From a virus (lineage: Duplodnaviria > Caudoviricetes), in IMG/VR virus record IMGVR_UViG_3300015201_000009, positions 1 through 27,289 of that record: 27,289 bases of DNA. One strand, 5' to 3'. A program made the translations under genes and the position numbers. The notes below the pieces were generated by a model. It was not told the DNA's origin. It saw nothing but the letters and a program-made list of their open reading frames with translations, and made no database searches. The stretch's first letter is position 1. The number at the start of each line of letters is the position of its first letter. This document shows, in pieces, positions 461 to 19,494 of the stretch.

Positions 461-1054
461 TCATCTTCCTTCCTTGTTTAAAAATTCAATATCGTATGAT
501 AGGTTAAACTCTTCTTCGGAAACTACTCCAGGTCTTTTCTCCGCTGTTCGTGGCTCGTATGCATAGATGATATAAGCCAGGTGCCTATCTTTCGCGTAGG
601 CTTCTTCCTTTGAGGTTACAGGATACGGCGAGTCTTTCTTGGGTAACCATCCCCCTTCTTCAATGGCTTCCTTGTGGGTCACTCTAGGTACCGCAGATTG
701 CATTTCTACAGCCTTAACTTTATCAAGCCATTCCTGAAGCTTCTTTGCTCTCGCCTCTCCGGTAAGCGGAACCCATTCTTTCTCCTGCTCCTTCTGCTCC
801 GCTTCTTTCTTCTTCTGCTCGATCTCCCACCAATTAACTTTTGGTTTATCAGGGGGTATTTTATTAAGTTTATTGGTTAAGTGTGTTCTATGTTCCCTGA
901 TAGGTACGACTGCAAAGGCTTCTCTATCAGCAAGTCCTAAAGTGTAAACCTGTTCAGCTACCTTTTTGAAAGTTTCAGGTTTGTGATTTTTACTTGCAGC
1001 CTCATACCAGATCTCGTCTGAGGTAAGGGATTGATAGAAGGATTCAAAATTCAT
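461..1054 (-). CDS. hypothetical protein; N-terminus resembles the C-terminal domain of Bacteroidota phage replication proteins
   Basis: 197 aa ORF, ATGA overlap with upstream gene; L..DEIW.E ... H..N.L pattern recalled from such proteins (weak). Confidence 0.45.
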   Translation of the reverse strand: MNFESFYQSLTSDEIWYEAASKNHKPETFKKVAEQVYTLGLADREAFAVVPIREHRTHLTNKLNKIPPDKPKVNWWEIEQKKKEAEQKEQEKEWVPLTGEARAKKLQEWLDKVKAVEMQSAVPRVTHKEAIEEGGWLPKKDSPYPVTSKEEAYAKDRHLAYIIYAYEPRTAEKRPGVVSEEEFNLSYDIEFLNKEGR

Positions 1055-1206
1055 TTCTTTACTTTCTTTTTCTTTGACATCCGGTAAGGGTGGTTATTCA
1101 AAAGGTTTTCAACATACCGGTTAAAGGGAGTATTGAAAGTAACCGATTCACTTTTAAGCTCTGTTATAAGGTCAGGATCAAATTTAAATGTCTGTACTTG
1201 TTTCAT
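1051..1206 (-). CDS. ribbon-helix-helix (Arc/CopG-like) DNA-binding protein, 51 aa
   Basis: Not in ORF track. MKQVQTFKFDPDLITELKSESVTFNTPFNRYVENLL...: alternating beta strand plus two helices; ATGA overlaps at both ends. Confidence 0.65.
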   Translation of the reverse strand: MKQVQTFKFDPDLITELKSESVTFNTPFNRYVENLLNNHPYRMSKKKKVKK

Positions 1207-1748: not shown

Positions 1749-2267
1749 TTATTTTCCATGATGTATTTTATGGCATTTAAAACACAGTGGCACAACATCT
1801 TCAACGGTCTCATGATATAGGTTTTTGTAGGTTCTATGATGCCCTTGTAGCCTGTCCTCAGAACAGCAAAGAACACATTTACCACCCCAGTGGATTATAC
1901 ATTCTATTCTGATCTTCCTCCATTCAGGAGATTTAAGGTAATCCAAATACTTTTGCCTCCATTCATCAGTTATAATTTTAACCTTCTTTTCGGGTCTCTT
2001 TTTTGGTGTTGGTTCAGGTAAAATATCCTGTTCGTATAATTGGATTATGAATGCGTCAGTCCTAATTTCAATAGGCCTTTGTATATCAAACATTGTAAGG
2101 AATGTACTTATTCTCTTTTTATGTTTCATTCCGTGTAAGTTCACCCCCTCACGTTCCAAAGCATCAAATATTCTTCTTTTAGCAGCCTTAAGCTTAATAT
2201 GATAATTCATGGACTTATTGTGATGAGCCATAGTTTCTAGGTTTGTGTGGTCAATTCCTCCGATCAT
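1749..2267 (-). CDS. HNH endonuclease with N-terminal extension
   Basis: YLKSPEWRKIR...CVLC...GHHRTY...LCFKCHKIHH. Confidence 0.85.
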   Translation of the reverse strand: MIGGIDHTNLETMAHHNKSMNYHIKLKAAKRRIFDALEREGVNLHGMKHKKRISTFLTMFDIQRPIEIRTDAFIIQLYEQDILPEPTPKKRPEKKVKIITDEWRQKYLDYLKSPEWRKIRIECIIHWGGKCVLCCSEDRLQGHHRTYKNLYHETVEDVVPLCFKCHKIHHGK

Positions 2268-2299: not shown

Positions 2300-2731
2300 G
2301 ATTTCTAGAGCGAGGTAAGGACAGAGTGAGCCCCCCTAACCCCCATTAAAGAAGTTAGGAGAGTAAAGTTTTCTATCGCTTCGGTTAAGTCTTCGCTTCG
2401 CCTTTGTTTTATTTCGGCCCCCTCACCATAGCGAAACTAGTCGCGGGCTAATGCATCCGAAAATGTTTTAATGTCTCGCCTACGTATTGCACGTAAGATC
2501 ACACCTGACAATGATTTTTATTTGTTTATGAGAGCCGCCGTATACCCCGTAGGACATGGACTAAACGCTCTGTCTCCCTTTAAGCAGAACCTAAGAGATG
2601 CCCTTGATCACGGGAAACGCTTTTTGAGGTAAGGTATAAAAAGCAAAAACCTGCAGTGAGGGTCCAGCTCAAAACAGGTTCTACTTGATTTCACACTTAA
2701 TACTGGACCTATCAGGTGTGAATTGATAGGC
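2300..2731 (-). ncRNA. candidate structured non-coding RNA or cis-regulatory leader
   Basis: No long ORF; multiple hairpins with G-U pairs on the minus strand, cUACGg loop, complementary loops, 10-bp long-range pairing. Confidence 0.6.
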
Positions 2732-2763
2732 CGAATATCACCAACTAAAACGACACAAACAAA
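2732..2763 (-). promoter_or_regulatory. possible Bacteroidota-type promoter for the non-coding region
   Basis: TTTG-N20-GATATTCG on the minus strand (degenerate match to TTTG...TAnnTTTG). Confidence 0.35.
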
Positions 2764-2804: not shown

Positions 2805-2826
2805 AAAAAAAGACCCTAAGGCCTTC
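2805..2826 (-). terminator. intrinsic terminator closing the TnpB guide
   Basis: AAGGCC-TTAG-GGTCTT followed by a T run on the minus strand. Confidence 0.75.
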
Positions 2827-2828
2827 TA

Positions 2829-3000
2829 GTTTCTGTTTCTCTCTCAGATTGGCATCCTCTTCGTCATAAAGACAAAGATTCCCTTAACGGCGTCTTATGC
2901 CCCAGACGGAAACTGAGTATGTTTTTAGCGGCGTTCACATCCCTTTGATGCTCGGCACCACAACTACACGTCCAGTTTCTTACTCCCAATTCGCGCACAC
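2829..3000 (-). ncRNA. TnpB omega-RNA (reRNA) scaffold plus ~20 nt guide; 5' boundary approximate
   Basis: IS200/IS605-type right end GGAAT-CTTTGTC-TTTAT-GACGAAG-AGGATGCCAA overlapping the tnpB stop; upstream hairpin CGTCT/AGACG; guide 2848-2829. Confidence 0.7.
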
Positions 3001-3913
3001 CTTTCGGGCCTGTTCGTTCTTTGCAGACTGAACACGTCACGGTTGAGAAACTTTCATTGACCTCTTTCACTTCGACGCCAAGCCTAATGGCTTTGTATGC
3101 AAGCATCGTTTTGAAGGATGACCAACCTGCATCACTGACAGATTTAGCCATCCGGGTTTTTATTAATTTTGATGATGAGACGTTACCAATCGCAATCAGA
3201 TCATATTCTTTGACCAGTTTCGTGGTTTGTTTATGGTTCCAGTCTCTTCTTTGATTCTTCATTTTGGCATGAATGGCAGTAACTAGTTTCTTTTTACCGG
3301 CCCTTTGTGCCATAGCTAGTTTCTGTTCATACTTACAGGTAAGATTGTCCCTACTTAGTTCATTGCCATTAGATAGGGTAGCTATCGTTTTTAAGCCTAA
3401 GTCAATACCCACTTCCTTGCCTGTTTGTATACGTACTCGGTCAGCATCAGCAATAACCATATTAACGAACCAATGACCTTTGGCATCCTGCGAAAAGGAA
3501 CCAGCCCTGATTTTGCCTTCTATGGGTCTGGACATCCAGAAACGGAATGCGCGCCCATTGTATATAATACAATCACCATTTAGCTTTACTCCAGCGCCTT
3601 TAAAGGGTATCCAGCCAAGAGACCGTTTTCGGCTTCTCCAATTCAATTTTGGTTTCTTGAATTGCTTGCTGCATTTCGCGTACTCTTCTCCAATAGCCTG
3701 AACGGTTTGGGAGTATAATCCTAAGTCTTTGGCACAGCCAGCCGTTTTCATGTTCAGATCAAACCCAGAATACGTTTTACGGAATTTACGCCAGCTATCA
3801 TAGTTCACATCGTTGCAATAGTTCCAAACGAAATTAACTGCGCCAGCCATCTTATTTAGATGTTTGGAGGTAGTTTCGTCTTTGATTCTATATCGTAACG
3901 TTGTCAATTCCAT
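2864..3913 (-). CDS. tnpB: TnpB RNA-guided endonuclease (IS200/IS605 family, IS1341-like, no tnpA)
   Basis: N-terminal YRI/HTH with VWN, RuvC-I GIDLG, Zn finger CSVC...CSC, RuvC-III HQRDVNAAKNI. Confidence 0.95.
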   Translation of the reverse strand: MELTTLRYRIKDETTSKHLNKMAGAVNFVWNYCNDVNYDSWRKFRKTYSGFDLNMKTAGCAKDLGLYSQTVQAIGEEYAKCSKQFKKPKLNWRSRKRSLGWIPFKGAGVKLNGDCIIYNGRAFRFWMSRPIEGKIRAGSFSQDAKGHWFVNMVIADADRVRIQTGKEVGIDLGLKTIATLSNGNELSRDNLTCKYEQKLAMAQRAGKKKLVTAIHAKMKNQRRDWNHKQTTKLVKEYDLIAIGNVSSSKLIKTRMAKSVSDAGWSSFKTMLAYKAIRLGVEVKEVNESFSTVTCSVCKERTGPKGVRELGVRNWTCSCGAEHQRDVNAAKNILSFRLGHKTPLRESLSL

Positions 3914-5550: not shown

Positions 5551-5730
5551 CTACCATACTTGAATGATTAAAAAGTCAGCAACATCTTGCTCGTAATATC
5601 CAGAGGTCCTATTCCTTGCGGCCTGGGCATCTTCCAGGTTACCAGAAATAGCTACCACCTCGAAACAATCGGTATAAAATCCAGCGTCTTCTTCACCTTG
5701 CGTTTTAGTCCTGATCACCGCGTATTTCAT
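5551..5730 (-). CDS. small hypothetical protein (59 aa)
   Basis: Manually translated MKYAVIRTKTQ...FLIIQVW; fills the operon gap. Confidence 0.6.
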   Translation of the reverse strand: MKYAVIRTKTQGEEDAGFYTDCFEVVAISGNLEDAQAARNRTSGYYEQDVADFLIIQVW

Positions 5731-5739
5731 AATTCTATC

Positions 5740-5971
5740 TGTTAGTAGCTAATCAACTTTTCTTTATTATGAATTTAACAACCCTTTGAAGGCCTGAAAT
5801 CCCCTGTTCATCGAAGTCCATACCAAGTTGCTCACATAGGTCGTACAGCGTTACCCAGGCCCTTGCTTGATCTTTTAAGGCTGCCGGATCATCACTGATG
5901 GTCTTTGTTTTCATTATCTCATTTACATTCTCTACAGTAATTTCCATGTTATTTTGTGTTAGTAGCTAATC
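5740..5971. repeat. 15-bp direct repeat TGTTAGTAGCTAATC (5740-5754, 5957-5971)
   Basis: Exact duplicate; partial third copy TTAGTAGCTA at 5454-5463. Confidence 0.85.
5753..5947 (-). CDS. small hypothetical protein
   Basis: 64 aa ORF in operon. Confidence 0.65.
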   Translation of the reverse strand: MEITVENVNEIMKTKTISDDPAALKDQARAWVTLYDLCEQLGMDFDEQGISGLQRVVKFIIKKS

Positions 5972-6364
5972 TGCTGAAGCAGTTTCAGCTGCACTTTGTA
6001 ATGATCAATCTTTTCAACTAGTTCGTGACGCATGAATTTAGCCAGGCTTTTTGATTGCAATCGCAACTCTTCTAATAGATCAGGTCCGTAAACTTGATGC
6101 ATCATCCAAACGTATTTCTGACCATGTTCAGGATCGACGCAATTGCAATACTGGCAAACTGGATGGCAATTCCCTTTCATCGTAACGGGTAGCCATTTGA
6201 TCTCGATCTATGAAGTGCCCACACTGTGCCTCTGATATTCTCATTCGCTTTGAGCAAATGAAACAATAGCAATACCCATCATGGGAATATTTGTTGCGGA
6301 TATACTTACTGAATACGTCATCCAGTTCTTTCGTGAGCACCGCTAAAGACTTATCCGGTTTCAT
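5959..6364 (-). pseudogene. ninG: NinG/Rap-like recombination endonuclease split by a +1 frameshift
   Basis: LD.VFSKYIR...CFIC...CGHF......TRYDE in one frame and NCH..C..CN in the next; removing one G at 6172-6174 restores DERNCHP. Confidence 0.75.
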
Positions 6365-14045: not shown

Positions 14046-14381
14046 ATGTTCTGGAAGAAGTCTCAAAAAAAGCCGGGGTTAGACAAAGAGGCGTTAAAAA
14101 TAACCAAAGGAAATTCTGAATTGGTCCTTTTTACTCCAACCAATTACGAAGGAAATGTAACGTATGGCGAGTTCTATTCGGTCGACATTTGCCCGAAGTG
14201 TCATGCGGTTTTAGATGACAAGAAGGCCCGTTATTATTCAAGATGTTGCTATAAGTGTGGGCATACAAACTGCGACACACTCTTTGACACGGAGAAAGTA
14301 ACGGTTAGAGATGTGTATGTTAATGGGAAATTCACCGAGACGATAGTTCATGAAAAAGAAAATCGGATCGGGCAAAGATGA
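14046..14381 (+). CDS. zinc-binding hypothetical protein between terS and terL
   Basis: CPKC...CYKC; ATGA-coupled to terL. Confidence 0.65.
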   Translation: MFWKKSQKKPGLDKEALKITKGNSELVLFTPTNYEGNVTYGEFYSVDICPKCHAVLDDKKARYYSRCCYKCGHTNCDTLFDTEKVTVRDVYVNGKFTETIVHEKENRIGQR

Positions 14382-17092
14382 GTGCAGCTGAATCCTACGC
14401 CTCCTGGGTTCTGGACCCTGCCAACACTCACCGAACGGGGAGACTGATTAAGCTTGCAGCTCAACGGTTCTTCGATGATCTAAAGCGTGAAGACATTTAT
14501 TTCGACGAAGTGGAGGCGAACCGGATCTGTATTTTCGCTGAAAACTATTGCTGTCTATGGGAGGACAAGTGGCGCGGTAAGCCGGTAAAGTTGGAGCTCT
14601 GGCAGAAGTTTGCTTTGCAGAATATGTACGGCTGGTTTGTGAAATCTACCGGACTCCGAAGGTTTAAGAAAGGCTACATCCAGATCGCGAAGAAGAACGC
14701 GAAGGCACTTGACATTAACACACCAATTCCTACCCCGGATGGTTGGCGTAGAATGCTTGATATACAAGCCGGTGATTTTGTTTTTGGTGACGATGGAAAG
14801 GCAACACGAGTGAATTTTATATCGGAGTTAATGGAAAGAGATTCCTATGAGATTACTTTCCGTGGCGGGGATAAAATAATAGCATCAGGAGATCATCTAT
14901 GGAGGGCCAGAAATAATAAATGGAGATCCGAAAAAGGAGGCCGGCATTACTATTACAAAATTGTTGATACCAATTATATAGCAGAAAATTTTTTAGATAA
15001 AAAAGGTTTCCCGATTATTCATATTCAAAATGCTAAGGCAGTTGAATACCTTCATAAAAATCTTTTAATACCTCCTTACATCTTAGGCTGTTGGCTGGGC
15101 GACGGACACAGTAAATCGGCGAGGGTTACATTTAATGCGCTAGATTCGGAGCTTGTGACTAATATCCAGGCAGATGGATACTCTTTAACAAAGGGAGCAA
15201 AGGAAAAAAGTTCTAATGCTGTAACCTATAAATTAGGTGATTACAACGAATTACTATCCGGACTTAAGGCGTATAACCTTGTTAATAACAAACACATTCC
15301 GGAAGTTTATCTACAGTCCTCAATTGAACAAAGGTTCGAGTTATTGAAGGGGTTAATGGACACCGATGGGACAGCAACACCTCGCGGCCAGTGTATTTAT
15401 TGCACGATCAGAGAAGAGTTTGCTAAAGACGTTTTGGAACTTATCACAAGCCTTGGATTTAAAGCAACGCTTACGGATAAGGTTTCACGTTGTCAGACCG
15501 GTGCGATAGGTAAAGCTTATTATATTGGTTTCTTCCCTGACGTTCCGGTATTCAAGTTGAAACGAAAATTAGCCAGACAGAAAGAAAAAGTAAACCACAG
15601 ATCTCACCATAGAACGATAATAGATGTAAAGCCTGTAGGTAAAAGGTTAGTAAAATGCATTTCAGTAGATAACAGCTCACATCTATATCTAGCCGGGAAA
15701 CACTTTATACCAACCCACAACACGACTTTGGGCGGTGGTGTGATTGGAAACTTCCACCTGTTTGCAGACGAACGGATCAAGACGCCAAAGATATTCGTCG
15801 GGGCCAACAATGAGGATCAGGCTAAACTTTGCGTGAACATCACCGGGAAGGTTATCGAACAATCTCCAGCGCTGTATGAGTATGTGGAAGATGATTCTGT
15901 CAGACTGTTCCGGTACAAAGAGAACATTGTGAATATCGTTCACTCGGAGCGGGACGGGTTTATCAAAGCGTTATCGAAAGAAACAGGCGACCGTACTTCT
16001 AAAACTGCCGGGGGAAAGCATGGTATCAATCCGTCATTAGGGATCATTGACGAGTACGGGATGGCTCAGGATGATAATTTATTGAATACGATTGAGTCGG
16101 CTATGGCTGGACGCGAAGAGCCGTTTGTTTTGATCATCACTACTTCCGGGTTCTATTTACAGGGGCCGTGTCATGACAAGCTTCGAAAGATAGGTATCGC
16201 AGTCCTGGAAGGAACTATGACCGATGACAGTTACCTGGCTTTGATCTACGAGATCGACCCACCGACACCGGGAGAAATAACAGTCGATTGGTTGCTGGCG
16301 AATGAGAATGTTTGGGAACAAGCGAATCCGAATATTGATGTATCGGTGTTCAGAACTTTCTTGCGTGATCAATTGATAGCGGCGAAGAACGAAGGCGGCA
16401 GTAAAGAAGTGTCTGTGATGACGCTGAACTTTAACCGGTGGATGGAGTCGGCGGAGGTGTTTATACCGATCGACATTTGGAATACGAACAGCCACGAATC
16501 AAAGATAGAGGATGGAGAAGAGTGCTACGGCGGTCTATGGGTAGGAGCTTCAGGAGAGATCAGCGCGTTTGCTTTGATCTTTCCCGGTGAGATCGTAAAG
16601 ATAAAAATGTTATTTTGGATGGCGGAAGACAGTTTGAAAATGAACGACACCTTACGGCAGTACAAAGAATTTATAAAAGTAGATCCTGGTAACGTGGTGG
16701 ATAATGACATTGCAGTCGATTGGATTGTGGATATGGTCGGAAAGTACAACATGCATTCGTTCTGTTTCCCAAAACCCCAGGAGAACAACAGCATAATTCA
16801 GGATTTGATTAAGCTCGGATACGTAGGACAATCACTATCACAAGGGCTTGCAAGTCTGGCACAACCGACCGACCACTGGGAGAAGTTGATCAGATCAGGC
16901 AAAGCGGACCATTTCAACAACCCGGTTTTGAAGTGGATGAACAGTAACTGCATGGCGACCCGGAAGGAAGCTGGAACAAAGATCGACAACAATCCAAAAG
17001 TGTACGGTATATCAGCGTGTATCAATGCCGTTGCCCAGTGGGATTTGATCGACGCACAAGGAGGAAAAGAAATAGGAATTGTATTTATATGA
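14378..17092 (+). CDS. terL: terminase large subunit, intein-containing (565 aa after splicing)
   Basis: L..WQ.F, RRF, Walker A AKKNAK|TT, Walker B GIIDEY, IITTSG, W..ANP, H..NP.L.W. Confidence 0.95.
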   Translation: MSAAESYASWVLDPANTHRTGRLIKLAAQRFFDDLKREDIYFDEVEANRICIFAENYCCLWEDKWRGKPVKLELWQKFALQNMYGWFVKSTGLRRFKKGYIQIAKKNAKALDINTPIPTPDGWRRMLDIQAGDFVFGDDGKATRVNFISELMERDSYEITFRGGDKIIASGDHLWRARNNKWRSEKGGRHYYYKIVDTNYIAENFLDKKGFPIIHIQNAKAVEYLHKNLLIPPYILGCWLGDGHSKSARVTFNALDSELVTNIQADGYSLTKGAKEKSSNAVTYKLGDYNELLSGLKAYNLVNNKHIPEVYLQSSIEQRFELLKGLMDTDGTATPRGQCIYCTIREEFAKDVLELITSLGFKATLTDKVSRCQTGAIGKAYYIGFFPDVPVFKLKRKLARQKEKVNHRSHHRTIIDVKPVGKRLVKCISVDNSSHLYLAGKHFIPTHNTTLGGGVIGNFHLFADERIKTPKIFVGANNEDQAKLCVNITGKVIEQSPALYEYVEDDSVRLFRYKENIVNIVHSERDGFIKALSKETGDRTSKTAGGKHGINPSLGIIDEYGMAQDDNLLNTIESAMAGREEPFVLIITTSGFYLQGPCHDKLRKIGIAVLEGTMTDDSYLALIYEIDPPTPGEITVDWLLANENVWEQANPNIDVSVFRTFLRDQLIAAKNEGGSKEVSVMTLNFNRWMESAEVFIPIDIWNTNSHESKIEDGEECYGGLWVGASGEISAFALIFPGEIVKIKMLFWMAEDSLKMNDTLRQYKEFIKVDPGNVVDNDIAVDWIVDMVGKYNMHSFCFPKPQENNSIIQDLIKLGYVGQSLSQGLASLAQPTDHWEKLIRSGKADHFNNPVLKWMNSNCMATRKEAGTKIDNNPKVYGISACINAVAQWDLIDAQGGKEIGIVFI
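14705..15721 (+). mobile_element. class 3 intein with LAGLIDADG homing endonuclease (339 aa)
   Basis: Starts ALD..TPIPTPDGW, ends IPTHN/T; blocks LGCWLGDG and LKGLMDTDG; WCT triad. Confidence 0.92.
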
Positions 17093-17961
17093 CGTACGAC
17101 GAAGTTAATGACGATTTAGGGTCTGCCAAACCTTTCCGGGTAGTGGCAGCTCTAGCGGTATACGGAAGATTGCCACTACTCGAATACACTATTAAAAGAC
17201 TGTACCATAAGAACGGATGCGTAAAAGTAATCTGTTCAGGGGATCGGCCGGAAGACAAGGAGTTAGTCGAATCACTTGGAGCGGTTTGGGTTGAACATCC
17301 TAACAGACATTTAGGCCAGAAGTGGAACGCAAGTTTTAAAGCGGCTGAAAACTATGATCCTGATGCTTGTGTATTCGTTGGTTCGTCGGATTGGATCTCA
17401 GATAATTGGTTTCGTGTCATGCGCCCATACGTTGAGCAGCATGAATTTGCCGGGGTTGCGGGGTGTTCGCTGGTTGATATGGCTGAAGAAGTACGTTTGG
17501 TACACTGGAAAGGCTACAAAGGATGGCGCAGGGAGCGCGCAGATGAGACTATCGGCAGTGGCCGGATGCTATCTCGAAAGCTACTTAAAGCCCTAGCCTG
17601 GCAACCGTTTAAGGCTAATTTGAATAACTCATTGGACCACAGCATGAAGGCAAGAGCTAAAGAATGTGGGTATAATGACTTTATGGTACACGACGAAAGT
17701 TTAAAATCTCTTTCACTATCCACTCCGTTGTGGGCTAATAAACATAAGTTCGAGAGCCATTGGAGCGGAGTAATCCCAAGTATAAAGACAGAACCAGAGC
17801 CCTTTTTAAGTACGTATTTTCCAGAAACCAAACCTTTAAGCCAGAAAATTTATGAAGAAATCATTAACGCAAGAACTATCCGAGAAAGTGGAGCAATTGC
17901 GGAAGCCAACACAATGCAGGACATGTCTATTCGACTCATCAATAGCCAAAATAGAATCTGA
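17089..17961 (+). CDS. GT-A fold glycosyltransferase-like protein
   Basis: AVYGR...N..LG.KWN...VGSSDW; start MTYDE overlaps terL stop. Confidence 0.7.
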   Translation: MTYDEVNDDLGSAKPFRVVAALAVYGRLPLLEYTIKRLYHKNGCVKVICSGDRPEDKELVESLGAVWVEHPNRHLGQKWNASFKAAENYDPDACVFVGSSDWISDNWFRVMRPYVEQHEFAGVAGCSLVDMAEEVRLVHWKGYKGWRRERADETIGSGRMLSRKLLKALAWQPFKANLNNSLDHSMKARAKECGYNDFMVHDESLKSLSLSTPLWANKHKFESHWSGVIPSIKTEPEPFLSTYFPETKPLSQKIYEEIINARTIRESGAIAEANTMQDMSIRLINSQNRI

Positions 17962-18976
17962 CGGTGAATGTTCTTATTGTAAGCTACAGGAGAGCCAACG
18001 CAACCAAGCGCGAGAGCCGTGGGAAAAAGTTTTAGCGCGGATAAAAAGAAAGGGCGAGGGAAGGAAGTACGACTGTTTAATCGGTATTAGTGGTGGCGAG
18101 GATTCAAGCGTACTCCTTTACCTTGCTGTTAAGGTTTGGAATTTACGGGTGTTGGTTTTACACATTAATAACCGCACGAACATGCCTGAAGCGACAAATA
18201 ACATTCGTGTACTTCGAGATAATTTAAATGTGAACTTCATTGAATACTTTCCGGCTAAACAGGAGTACGACGAACTAACGGACAGCCTACTGAAGGCAGG
18301 AGTACAAGACGCAGATTTGGCAAATGACGTACACATGGCTAAACTTACTTTTAAGTTTGCCAAAGACAACGGAATAAAAACAACCTTAAACGGCCATAGC
18401 TTCAGAGAAGAAGGAAGTAGCCCAAAGGCTTGGAGCTTTCTTGACACAACGTACCTGCTGGATATTTATAAACGATTCACGCATAAAGATTTGTATTACT
18501 ACGAAGTTCTAACCTTGTGGGATCAGATACACGCTGGGCTTATCGGGATGGATCGGGTCAGCCCGTACCATTACGCCGACCATAACAGAGCACAGATTTT
18601 AAAAGAACTTAAAGCGCTGGGCTGGCAATCCTACGGCGCAAAACACGGAGAGAATATTTACACTATGTTCGTGGGTAATTACCTTCTCCCTAGAAAGTTT
18701 AAAATTGATAAAAGAAAAACTTATTTGAGTGCAGCTATCAGAGAAAAGCGAATGACGAAAAAAGAAGCTGAAGAGATTTTAAAAACGCCTTCTGAATTTG
18801 ATCTAAATCTACTTGGAGATCGTAAGGATCATATTTTAAGACTTGCCAACCTGTCTCCGATCCGTCCACGAAGCGAGTACAAGCAGACGAACTATAAAAA
18901 GTTACGACTCTTATTTCTGATTCTCTGGAAGTTAGGCGTGACCCCGGAAAGTGTTTATAAAAAGTATTGCAAATGA
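17852..18976 (+). CDS. N-acetyl sugar amidotransferase-like (WbuX/WbpG/PseA type, PP-loop)
   Basis: C..C..D...G.C..C, YDCLIGISGGEDSS, LGW..YG.KH.E, KF.IDKR. Confidence 0.85.
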   Translation: MKKSLTQELSEKVEQLRKPTQCRTCLFDSSIAKIESDGECSYCKLQESQRNQAREPWEKVLARIKRKGEGRKYDCLIGISGGEDSSVLLYLAVKVWNLRVLVLHINNRTNMPEATNNIRVLRDNLNVNFIEYFPAKQEYDELTDSLLKAGVQDADLANDVHMAKLTFKFAKDNGIKTTLNGHSFREEGSSPKAWSFLDTTYLLDIYKRFTHKDLYYYEVLTLWDQIHAGLIGMDRVSPYHYADHNRAQILKELKALGWQSYGAKHGENIYTMFVGNYLLPRKFKIDKRKTYLSAAIREKRMTKKEAEEILKTPSEFDLNLLGDRKDHILRLANLSPIRPRSEYKQTNYKKLRLLFLILWKLGVTPESVYKKYCK

Positions 18977-19494
18977 AATACACTGAAGAGGAACGGCTGG
19001 CCTTTGCGCGAAGTCATAGGTATAAATTAGCTGAAAATATTATTGGTGACGGTGTAATAATACACTATACCGCTGTTGTTGGTGGTGACGGATTCGGATT
19101 TGTGAGGGATGAGAATAAGAAATTGATAGAGATGCCGCATGCTGGTAGGGTTGTAATTGAAGATGATGTTTTAATAAGGGCTTTTGTTACAATCGACAGA
19201 GGTGTTGTCGAAGACACCGTAATTGGTGAAGGTACACGTATCGACCACCATACTCATGTGGCCCATAACGCAAAGATTGGAAAGCACAACACGTTTGCCA
19301 ACGGATGTATCATTGAAGGAAGCTGCGAGGTTGGTGATTATAACACTTTTGGCGCTGGGGTCATTGTTCAGACAAAAGTCAAAATAGGAAATAATTGCCG
19401 TTTCGGTAGTGGGGCAGTCGTCGTAAAAGACGTTGCTGACAACTCAGTTATGGTGGGGAATCCAGCAATGTGGATCAGAGAAAATAAAACTTAG
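18973..19494 (+). CDS. hexapeptide-repeat N-acyltransferase (LpxD C-terminal-like)
   Basis: GGDGFGF, H.G.V.IEDDV, TIDRG, VAHN, GNPA. Confidence 0.85.
   Translation: MKYTEEERLAFARSHRYKLAENIIGDGVIIHYTAVVGGDGFGFVRDENKKLIEMPHAGRVVIEDDVLIRAFVTIDRGVVEDTVIGEGTRIDHHTHVAHNAKIGKHNTFANGCIIEGSCEVGDYNTFGAGVIVQTKVKIGNNCRFGSGAVVVKDVADNSVMVGNPAMWIRENKT

Follow-up and report, generated by a model that had tools for sequence, protein, structure and literature searches.

The window analysed here is a linear virus record of 27,289 nucleotides (27.3 kb; IMGVR_UViG_3300015201_000009), about 42% complete, which is carried by soil metagenome runs; no RNA dataset is among the runs listed as holding it. On its minus strand, flanked by an HNH gene and by a tnpB gene that has a terminator of its own, lies a non-coding element of ~425 nt (2302-2763). 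The hairpins that a sequence-only reading had described as a switch-like leader, with all of its named sequences found where it placed them on the minus strand, form the 5' part of this larger element, which runs ~200 nt beyond the 3' limit proposed there (2499) and into a more strongly conserved domain. No frame of more than 63 codons crosses 2268-2860. Rfam gave no match for the window at E ≤ 1, tRNAs only for five related loci and nothing at E ≤ 10 for the B-type elements described below. The published literature, as searched, holds no description of such an element; in the accessible part of the supplements to a viral structured-RNA catalogue (PMC10690425) no motif matched, and a prior listing there is possible. 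The features, in minus-strand order, are as follows.

2808-2827, minus strand: terminator, from the terminator scan, that ends the upstream tnpB unit and insulates the element; this flank differs in other carriers.
2732-2763, minus strand: predicted Bacteroidota-type promoter (TTTG, 20 nt, GATATTCG), a relaxed-consensus match with a putative +1 near 2727.
2706-2732: 9-bp inverted repeat across the predicted start, a minor RNA state or possible DNA operator.
2690-2722, minus strand: hairpin 1 (arms 2716-2722/2690-2696; pair probability 0.93 when first made), with loop 2703-2709, segment X.
2638-2680, minus strand: hairpin 2 (stem 2648-2680), with anti-X loop 2661-2667 and U-tract 2638-2649, a predicted intrinsic terminator.
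2601-2634, minus strand: linker, kept in L022, X5, X6 and X7, in which a 9-nt direct repeat has its first copy (2626-2634) and a conserved small hairpin occupies 2601-2617.
2511-2600, minus strand: variable middle arm within the long-range helix, with 91 different letters in its place in X5, X6 and X7 and a shorter hairpin in L022.
2499-2511, minus strand: segment X', which by folding and complementarity pairs over 13 bp with 2709-2721 or else with the 3' end around 2312-2320.
2302-2498, minus strand: conserved 3' domain (83% identity with L022 across 227 nt), with a sharp end to the contig matches at ~2312.
2331-2363, minus strand: G-U-rich hairpin with a G5-TTA-G6 tract (2331-2344), from folding energies.
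1749-2267, minus strand: first downstream gene, an HNH endonuclease-like protein by PHROG matches.
461-1054, minus strand: orf197, a downstream gene that also lies behind the element in L025 and L032.

The tnpB gene (2864-3913, minus strand) has a start overlapping an upstream ORF and a terminator ~20 nt past its presumed end. No tnpA was seen beside it, no guide target beyond 8 nt was found for it in the window, and its RuvC-II position reads IAIGNV, without the Glu that we take to be usual in this catalytic motif; judged by its sequence, the protein may be nuclease-dead or domesticated. A TnpB omega-RNA or IS605 end was considered for the element and ruled out, since the element starts behind the tnpB terminator and other carriers have other flanks. 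Elsewhere in the window, a NinG-like gene (5959-6364, minus strand) is split over two overlapping frames, a 904-aa terminase-like ORF (14378-17092, plus strand) has an apparent intein as read by eye, and three ORFs that by eye resemble sugar-modification genes lie between the terminase-like and portal-like genes (17017-19494, plus strand).

Downstream of the element, the next gene begins ~10-45 nt past its end in the window, L022, L032 and L056, and the HNH gene is not a fixed partner, the latter three loci having other genes at that place. The terminator scan found none at the element's 3' end. This variation in downstream genes and a sigma-70-like promoter site at 2263-2290, at chance level, count against an attenuator that gates the downstream genes. 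The C-terminal half of orf197 is common to DUF6633-like phage proteins. Its Pfam matches, to G39P and DUF7833 at E 0.04-0.06, are confined to single members of the orf197 set, its fold search was uninformative (best Z 6.2), a search of Atlas and a BLAST against cultured phages returned nothing, and no profile match links it to two neighbouring initiator candidates. The L027 and L028 records stop ~1.5 kb upstream of orf197. A domain linked to orf197 has distant relatives in phages of Polaribacter, Elizabethkingia and Bacteroides; from these and from the promoter type, we infer a Bacteroidota host for the window phage.

The predicted promoter is one of four matches to the relaxed consensus in the window. 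Its start is placed near 2727 because the -7 box of Bacteroidota-type promoters is described at -12 to -5 (PMC9723704). The -7 box falls within the stretch kept in contigs X4, X6 and X7, and loose ends of contigs retain a TTG ~20 nt upstream; in L032, L056, L143 and L022 the predicted start is the first or second base of hairpin 1. This start bears on a stem (2724-2730/2708-2714) that had been proposed to exclude hairpin 1. The two stems have no bases in common, and a pseudoknot could accommodate both; what the proposed stem does clash with is the inner stem of hairpin 1 and two of its loop bases. A start at 2727 leaves three of the seven 5' bases of the proposed stem untranscribed, and its pairing probability is 0-0.19; it thus probably lies partly upstream of the predicted start and, by folding, is probably not a main RNA state. 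The corresponding inverted repeat (2706-2732) has no listed change in the contigs covering it, so there is no covariation, and it could possibly serve as a DNA operator. A 51-aa ORF (1051-1206, minus strand) looks ribbon-helix-helix-like by eye and is a possible repressor for such an operator; Pfam gave no support for it.

Soil contigs from three other studies carry the element between different flanks: X3 covers 2295-2476 (the 3' part only), X4 spans 2312-2739, and X5-X7, all from one study, keep 2470-2510 and 2601-2739 with the middle arm replaced. X1 and X2, which are probably the source sample, were left out of the counts. A viral scan recovered L022 and L025, 83% identical over the 3' 227 nt of the element, which makes the 3' domain more conserved than the shared orf197 gene (315 of 542 bases identical) and, as the most conserved part of the element, more conserved than the 5' switch. 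The related phages carrying the element come from soil and freshwater. Following orf197 and the G-tract pattern led to a second, B-type family (L032, L056 and L143), whose 5' module aligns with that of L022 and whose elements have a similar G-tract hairpin at their end. The A-type profile scores no B-type 3' domain, so the link between A-type and B-type 3' domains rests on architecture and on L022, which by its sequence is a bridge combining a B-type 5' module with an A-type 3' domain. Five full elements were compared (window, L022, L032, L143 and L056).

The G-tract search gave 117 oriented matches, of which 13 were read in context and three records kept; L118 duplicates L032, and freshwater loci such as L058 and L107, having only the G-tract hairpin in common, were left out. 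Matches to the 5'-hairpin pattern in L002-L004 and L005-L020 are unrelated, L021 is the window's own record, and L023, L024, L026, L148 and L149 are chance matches. Neither the two-block element pattern nor a scored orf197 occurs in any GTDB genome, locus searches led by proteins returned nothing, a BLAST of the element against cultured phages gave noise at E=7, and plasmid BLAST gave no match. Beside these carriers, X5 and X7 contigs that match only 2630-2686 hold hairpin 2 and its U-tract alone between other flanks, and their sequence suggests that the 5' module also serves other downstream RNAs. Seven further loci (L041, L058, L065, L072, L103, L107 and L139) have a shorter non-coding element heading early genes, with a G-tract in a G-U-rich hairpin, and the elements of these unrelated phages possibly form a wider class. 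L090 (~5600-6330, plus strand) has a long non-coding leader with the same G-tract at its end, followed by an ORF that looks antirepressor-like by eye. Upstream of orf197, structured non-coding stretches in L029 (4690-5050, plus strand) and L031 (6400-6650, plus strand) have CCGAAA ~56-58 nt before a short G-run, with a loop that has a downstream complement in L029; they may be distant versions of the element.

Within the 5' module, hairpin 1 displays segment X and hairpin 2 displays its complement. When the 95-nt module is dinucleotide-shuffled, two hairpins with 7-bp complementary loops arise in 82 of 20,000 cases; in the window, 13 of 5,440 tiles contain such a pair, at two places that include this element. 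It had been predicted that the two 7-nt loops would co-vary in homologues, and they do change together. One X5 contig has loop 1 altered at 2705 and 2707 (2 of 7 bases), and its own loose end carries an exactly matching loop 2; L032, L143 and L056 contribute two loop pairs changed on both sides; and L022 has another matched pair, read from the helix list, which the alignment displaces by three columns. A third loop-2 variant was found in the contigs without its partner. The longest perfect X:anti-X pairing is 7, 9, 7, 11 and 7 bp in the five elements, an equal length being reached in 121, 11, 166, 0 and 97 of 20,000 shuffles, in the same order. The hairpin-1 stems show no listed change in A-type contigs. 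In the cross-pairing matrix, the anti-X of L022 is a better partner for the X segments of L032 and L143 than their own anti-X segments are, and the modelled pairings support loop specificity in part. The U-tract after hairpin 2 is kept even in contigs whose loose ends have a different stem; the strict terminator scan did not pick up hairpin 2.

The 10-bp complement between 2712-2721 and 2499-2508 that the first description included is present and extends to 13 bp with G-U pairs, forming the strongest helix of the element. A perfect complement of at least 10 bp appears in 3 of 300 shuffles of 2499-2730 but, when the entire intergenic stretch is shuffled, in 6 of 60; because of the latter, the complement taken by itself is only suggestive. 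L022 has the same long-range helix with one-sided changes. Two observations on this helix count against an attenuator: one of its outer pairs is broken in X4 (one contig, depth 5), and none of the 22 best helices of L056 is a long-range X:X' helix.

The succession of structures was modelled by equilibrium folding of growing prefixes, without pseudoknots or kinetics. Prefixes ending at anti-X fold X:anti-X in 5/5 elements, and those ending past hairpin 2 fold the terminator in 5/5, with a near tie in L056 (-27.1 vs -26.5). In the window, the probability of X:anti-X is 0.86-0.96 at 2661-2657, that of the terminator is 0.96-0.98 at 2640, and that of the long-range helix is 0.99 in the read-through RNA. 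A U-tailed hairpin together with an earlier helix that uses part of it, the general mark of a terminator/antiterminator pair, is thus predicted in 5/5 elements, the U-tract being weak in L022. Equilibrium favours the terminator, so read-through would need a kinetic trap, and X:anti-X is read from the model as a kinetic antiterminator.

These results lead us to favour, with moderate confidence, a model in which the 5' 90 bases act as an attenuator with same-strand feedback by their own short RNA. Hairpin 1 would form first, and X would then pair with the newly emerged anti-X in a nested helix that takes up part of hairpin 2 and holds the terminator open, allowing polymerase to continue into the 3' RNA domain and the genes behind it. 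The loops are accordingly predicted to pair before hairpin 2 is complete, and not, as first proposed, as a kiss between finished hairpins. Once the 3' arm emerges, the RNA would either fold the U-tailed terminator, giving a short RNA of ~90 nt, or read through and form the 13-bp long-range helix. Accumulated short RNA, its anti-X loop exposed, might pair with X on new transcripts; X captured in trans would free the terminator and switch read-through off, a same-strand negative feedback whose specificity would be set by the loop sequence. This feedback step is modelled on IsrK and P4 CI as described in PMC4825925. In the read-through RNA, X' would alternate between the 5' module and the 3' end beyond the G-tract hairpin, a second predicted switch. 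Two further findings count against the attenuator: hairpin 2 of L022 has a poor U-tract, and a descriptor scan recovered L032 and L143 and missed the window and L056. Attenuation alone also leaves the higher conservation of the 3' domain unexplained.

That conservation, which includes unpaired sequence in the 3' domain, fits a free-standing folded RNA of ~425 nt in which the paired loops make a structural tertiary contact and hairpin 2 does not serve as a terminator. A fixed kiss would explain the covarying loops equally well, and the variable downstream genes agree with it. We nonetheless consider such an RNA improbable: in the window, L022, L032 and L143 the three segments X, anti-X and X' contend for shared bases, the 5' module has been swapped between families with its U-tract retained, and the terminator scan found none at the 3' end. 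A second alternative, conservation at the DNA level as an operator, origin or packaging site with incidental hairpins, would draw on the inverted repeat across the predicted start and on the many non-leader settings in which G-tract motifs occur. The folding energy of the G-tract hairpin is -18.4 kcal/mol as minus-strand RNA, -5.5 as plus-strand RNA and -3.6 as ssDNA, so that minus-strand RNA is the one form in which it is stable; covariation of two loops across 35-45 nt marks an RNA, and the terminase cluster lies more than 9 kb away. A DNA site is thus very unlikely.

The 3' domain suggests a further role, compatible with the attenuator, in which the read-through RNA would serve as a pre-primer for replication in the manner of ColE1 RNA II. 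The G-tract would leave its weak G-U hairpin, stay on the template as an R-loop and prime DNA synthesis, with the 5' switch setting the priming frequency. We regard this reading as tentative and rather unlikely. In its favour, conservation is higher in the 3' domain than in the protein gene nearby, and between the window and L022 the G side of the terminal hairpin is invariant and the pyrimidine side toggles between C and U. Tandem sites that we take, from their consensus, to be DnaA-type boxes lie 38 and 27 nt upstream of the -7 box in L032, L153 and L154, three B-type records of 8.3, 15.0 and 5.3 kb that hold no others; the window and L022, by contrast, have no such box near the element. Initiator, primase, DnaB/DnaC and polymerase PHROGs occur in none of 64 non-structural ORFs of related phages and none of 19 window ORFs, counts drawn from partial genomes in which most ORFs have no family; no genome considered is complete (14-71% where given). 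L151 has two SNF2-type helicase/methylase matches.

Gene neighbours of the G-tract were weighed in the same way. Among long ORFs over the same G-tract motif elsewhere (20 tested of 23 found), five are initiators or a DnaC-like loader; the motif itself is common (120 stretches), and in four of these five ORFs the G strand is the non-coding one. The tail that orf197 has in common with DUF6633-like proteins also supports a pre-primer, with one relative coming after an annotated initiation protein in TCUEAP3 and another after a 296-aa 'transcriptional regulator' in Danklef. TCUEAP3 has a MuB-like gene, however, so such neighbours prove no origin, and L029/L030 and L031 have orf197 but neither a scored element nor a G4-N-G4 tract. 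GC skew makes no turn at the element. Priming from a G-tract R-loop is known at mitochondrial CSB II (PMC3488243), and the reading also leans on PMC3035462, PMC6380287 and PMC5333043. In its full form, that a Bacteroidota phage replicates from an RNA primer without an origin-binding initiator, dosed by a terminated 5' fragment through a phage-specific loop code, the proposal is a speculative one that we would doubt as it stands.

Taken together, the alignments indicate that a conserved, covarying RNA switch likely heads an undescribed phage element of ~425 nt, a long RNA without an Rfam match whose switch carries natural compensatory changes. If it only gates genes, self-regulation of the CI/IsrK type would reach Bacteroidota phages through a sequence of no relation to those systems and a 5' module that can be swapped. 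If the primer reading were true, a phage lineage would join the RNA-primed replicons, for which PMC3035462 names ColE1 and MRB alone among plasmids; a sense RNA would then be seen to control copy number, and Bacteroidota tools would gain a small origin that needs no Rep.

Among known systems, ColE1 RNA II/RNA I and MRB resemble the element in an origin-sized non-coding transcript with alternative 5' folds and variable loops (PMC3035462, PMC6380287); no Rep gene was found among the ORFs scanned in the partial genomes. Their inhibitor, unlike the short RNA proposed here, is transcribed antisense from the opposite strand; at the element the promoter pattern has no plus-strand match, by a scan that could miss a weak promoter, and neither Rfam nor plasmid BLAST matched the element to RNA I or RNA II. 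CSB II likewise has a two-run G-tract near the transcript 3' end, which can form an RNA-DNA hybrid quadruplex and an R-loop (PMC3488243), but there is no homology and the tract of the element is sequestered in a G-U hairpin, so that the likeness is one of analogy only.

The likeness to P4 CI and P1 C4 that the sequence-only reading had drawn stands for the predicted folding path, which fits a CI-like attenuator, and falls for family membership, the element being neither C4 nor CI by Rfam; it also differs from what was then proposed in its loop pairing, exclusive stem and 3' limit. For the P1/P7 C4 RNA, the comparison draws on general background as well as on the Rfam listing. The element has no Rfam match and no antirepressor-type gene behind it; no antirepressor, repressor or integrase was matched among the ORFs scanned in these incomplete records. 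Its termination looks intrinsic, a conserved 200-nt G-tract domain follows, and the probable host is a member of Bacteroidota; c4 RNA is listed in Proteobacteria and phages (PMC2864571). P4 CI RNA pairs with seqA and seqC and, like the element, involves one strand, complementary partners upstream and downstream, and premature termination (PMC4825925). Segments with two or three alternative partners occur in L022, L032, L143 and the window, weakly in L056, and the likeness is clearest in L022, where the hairpin-2 loop has three. IsrK of the Gifsy-1 prophage has no sequence match to the element, works mainly through translation control by way of orf45 and activates; the element has no leader ORF above 63 codons, and termination is its predicted control. 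In both, nevertheless, an intrinsic terminator would end a short RNA whose sequence makes a long-range helix in the read-through form, and IsrK acts in trans on its own read-through RNA (PMC4825925).
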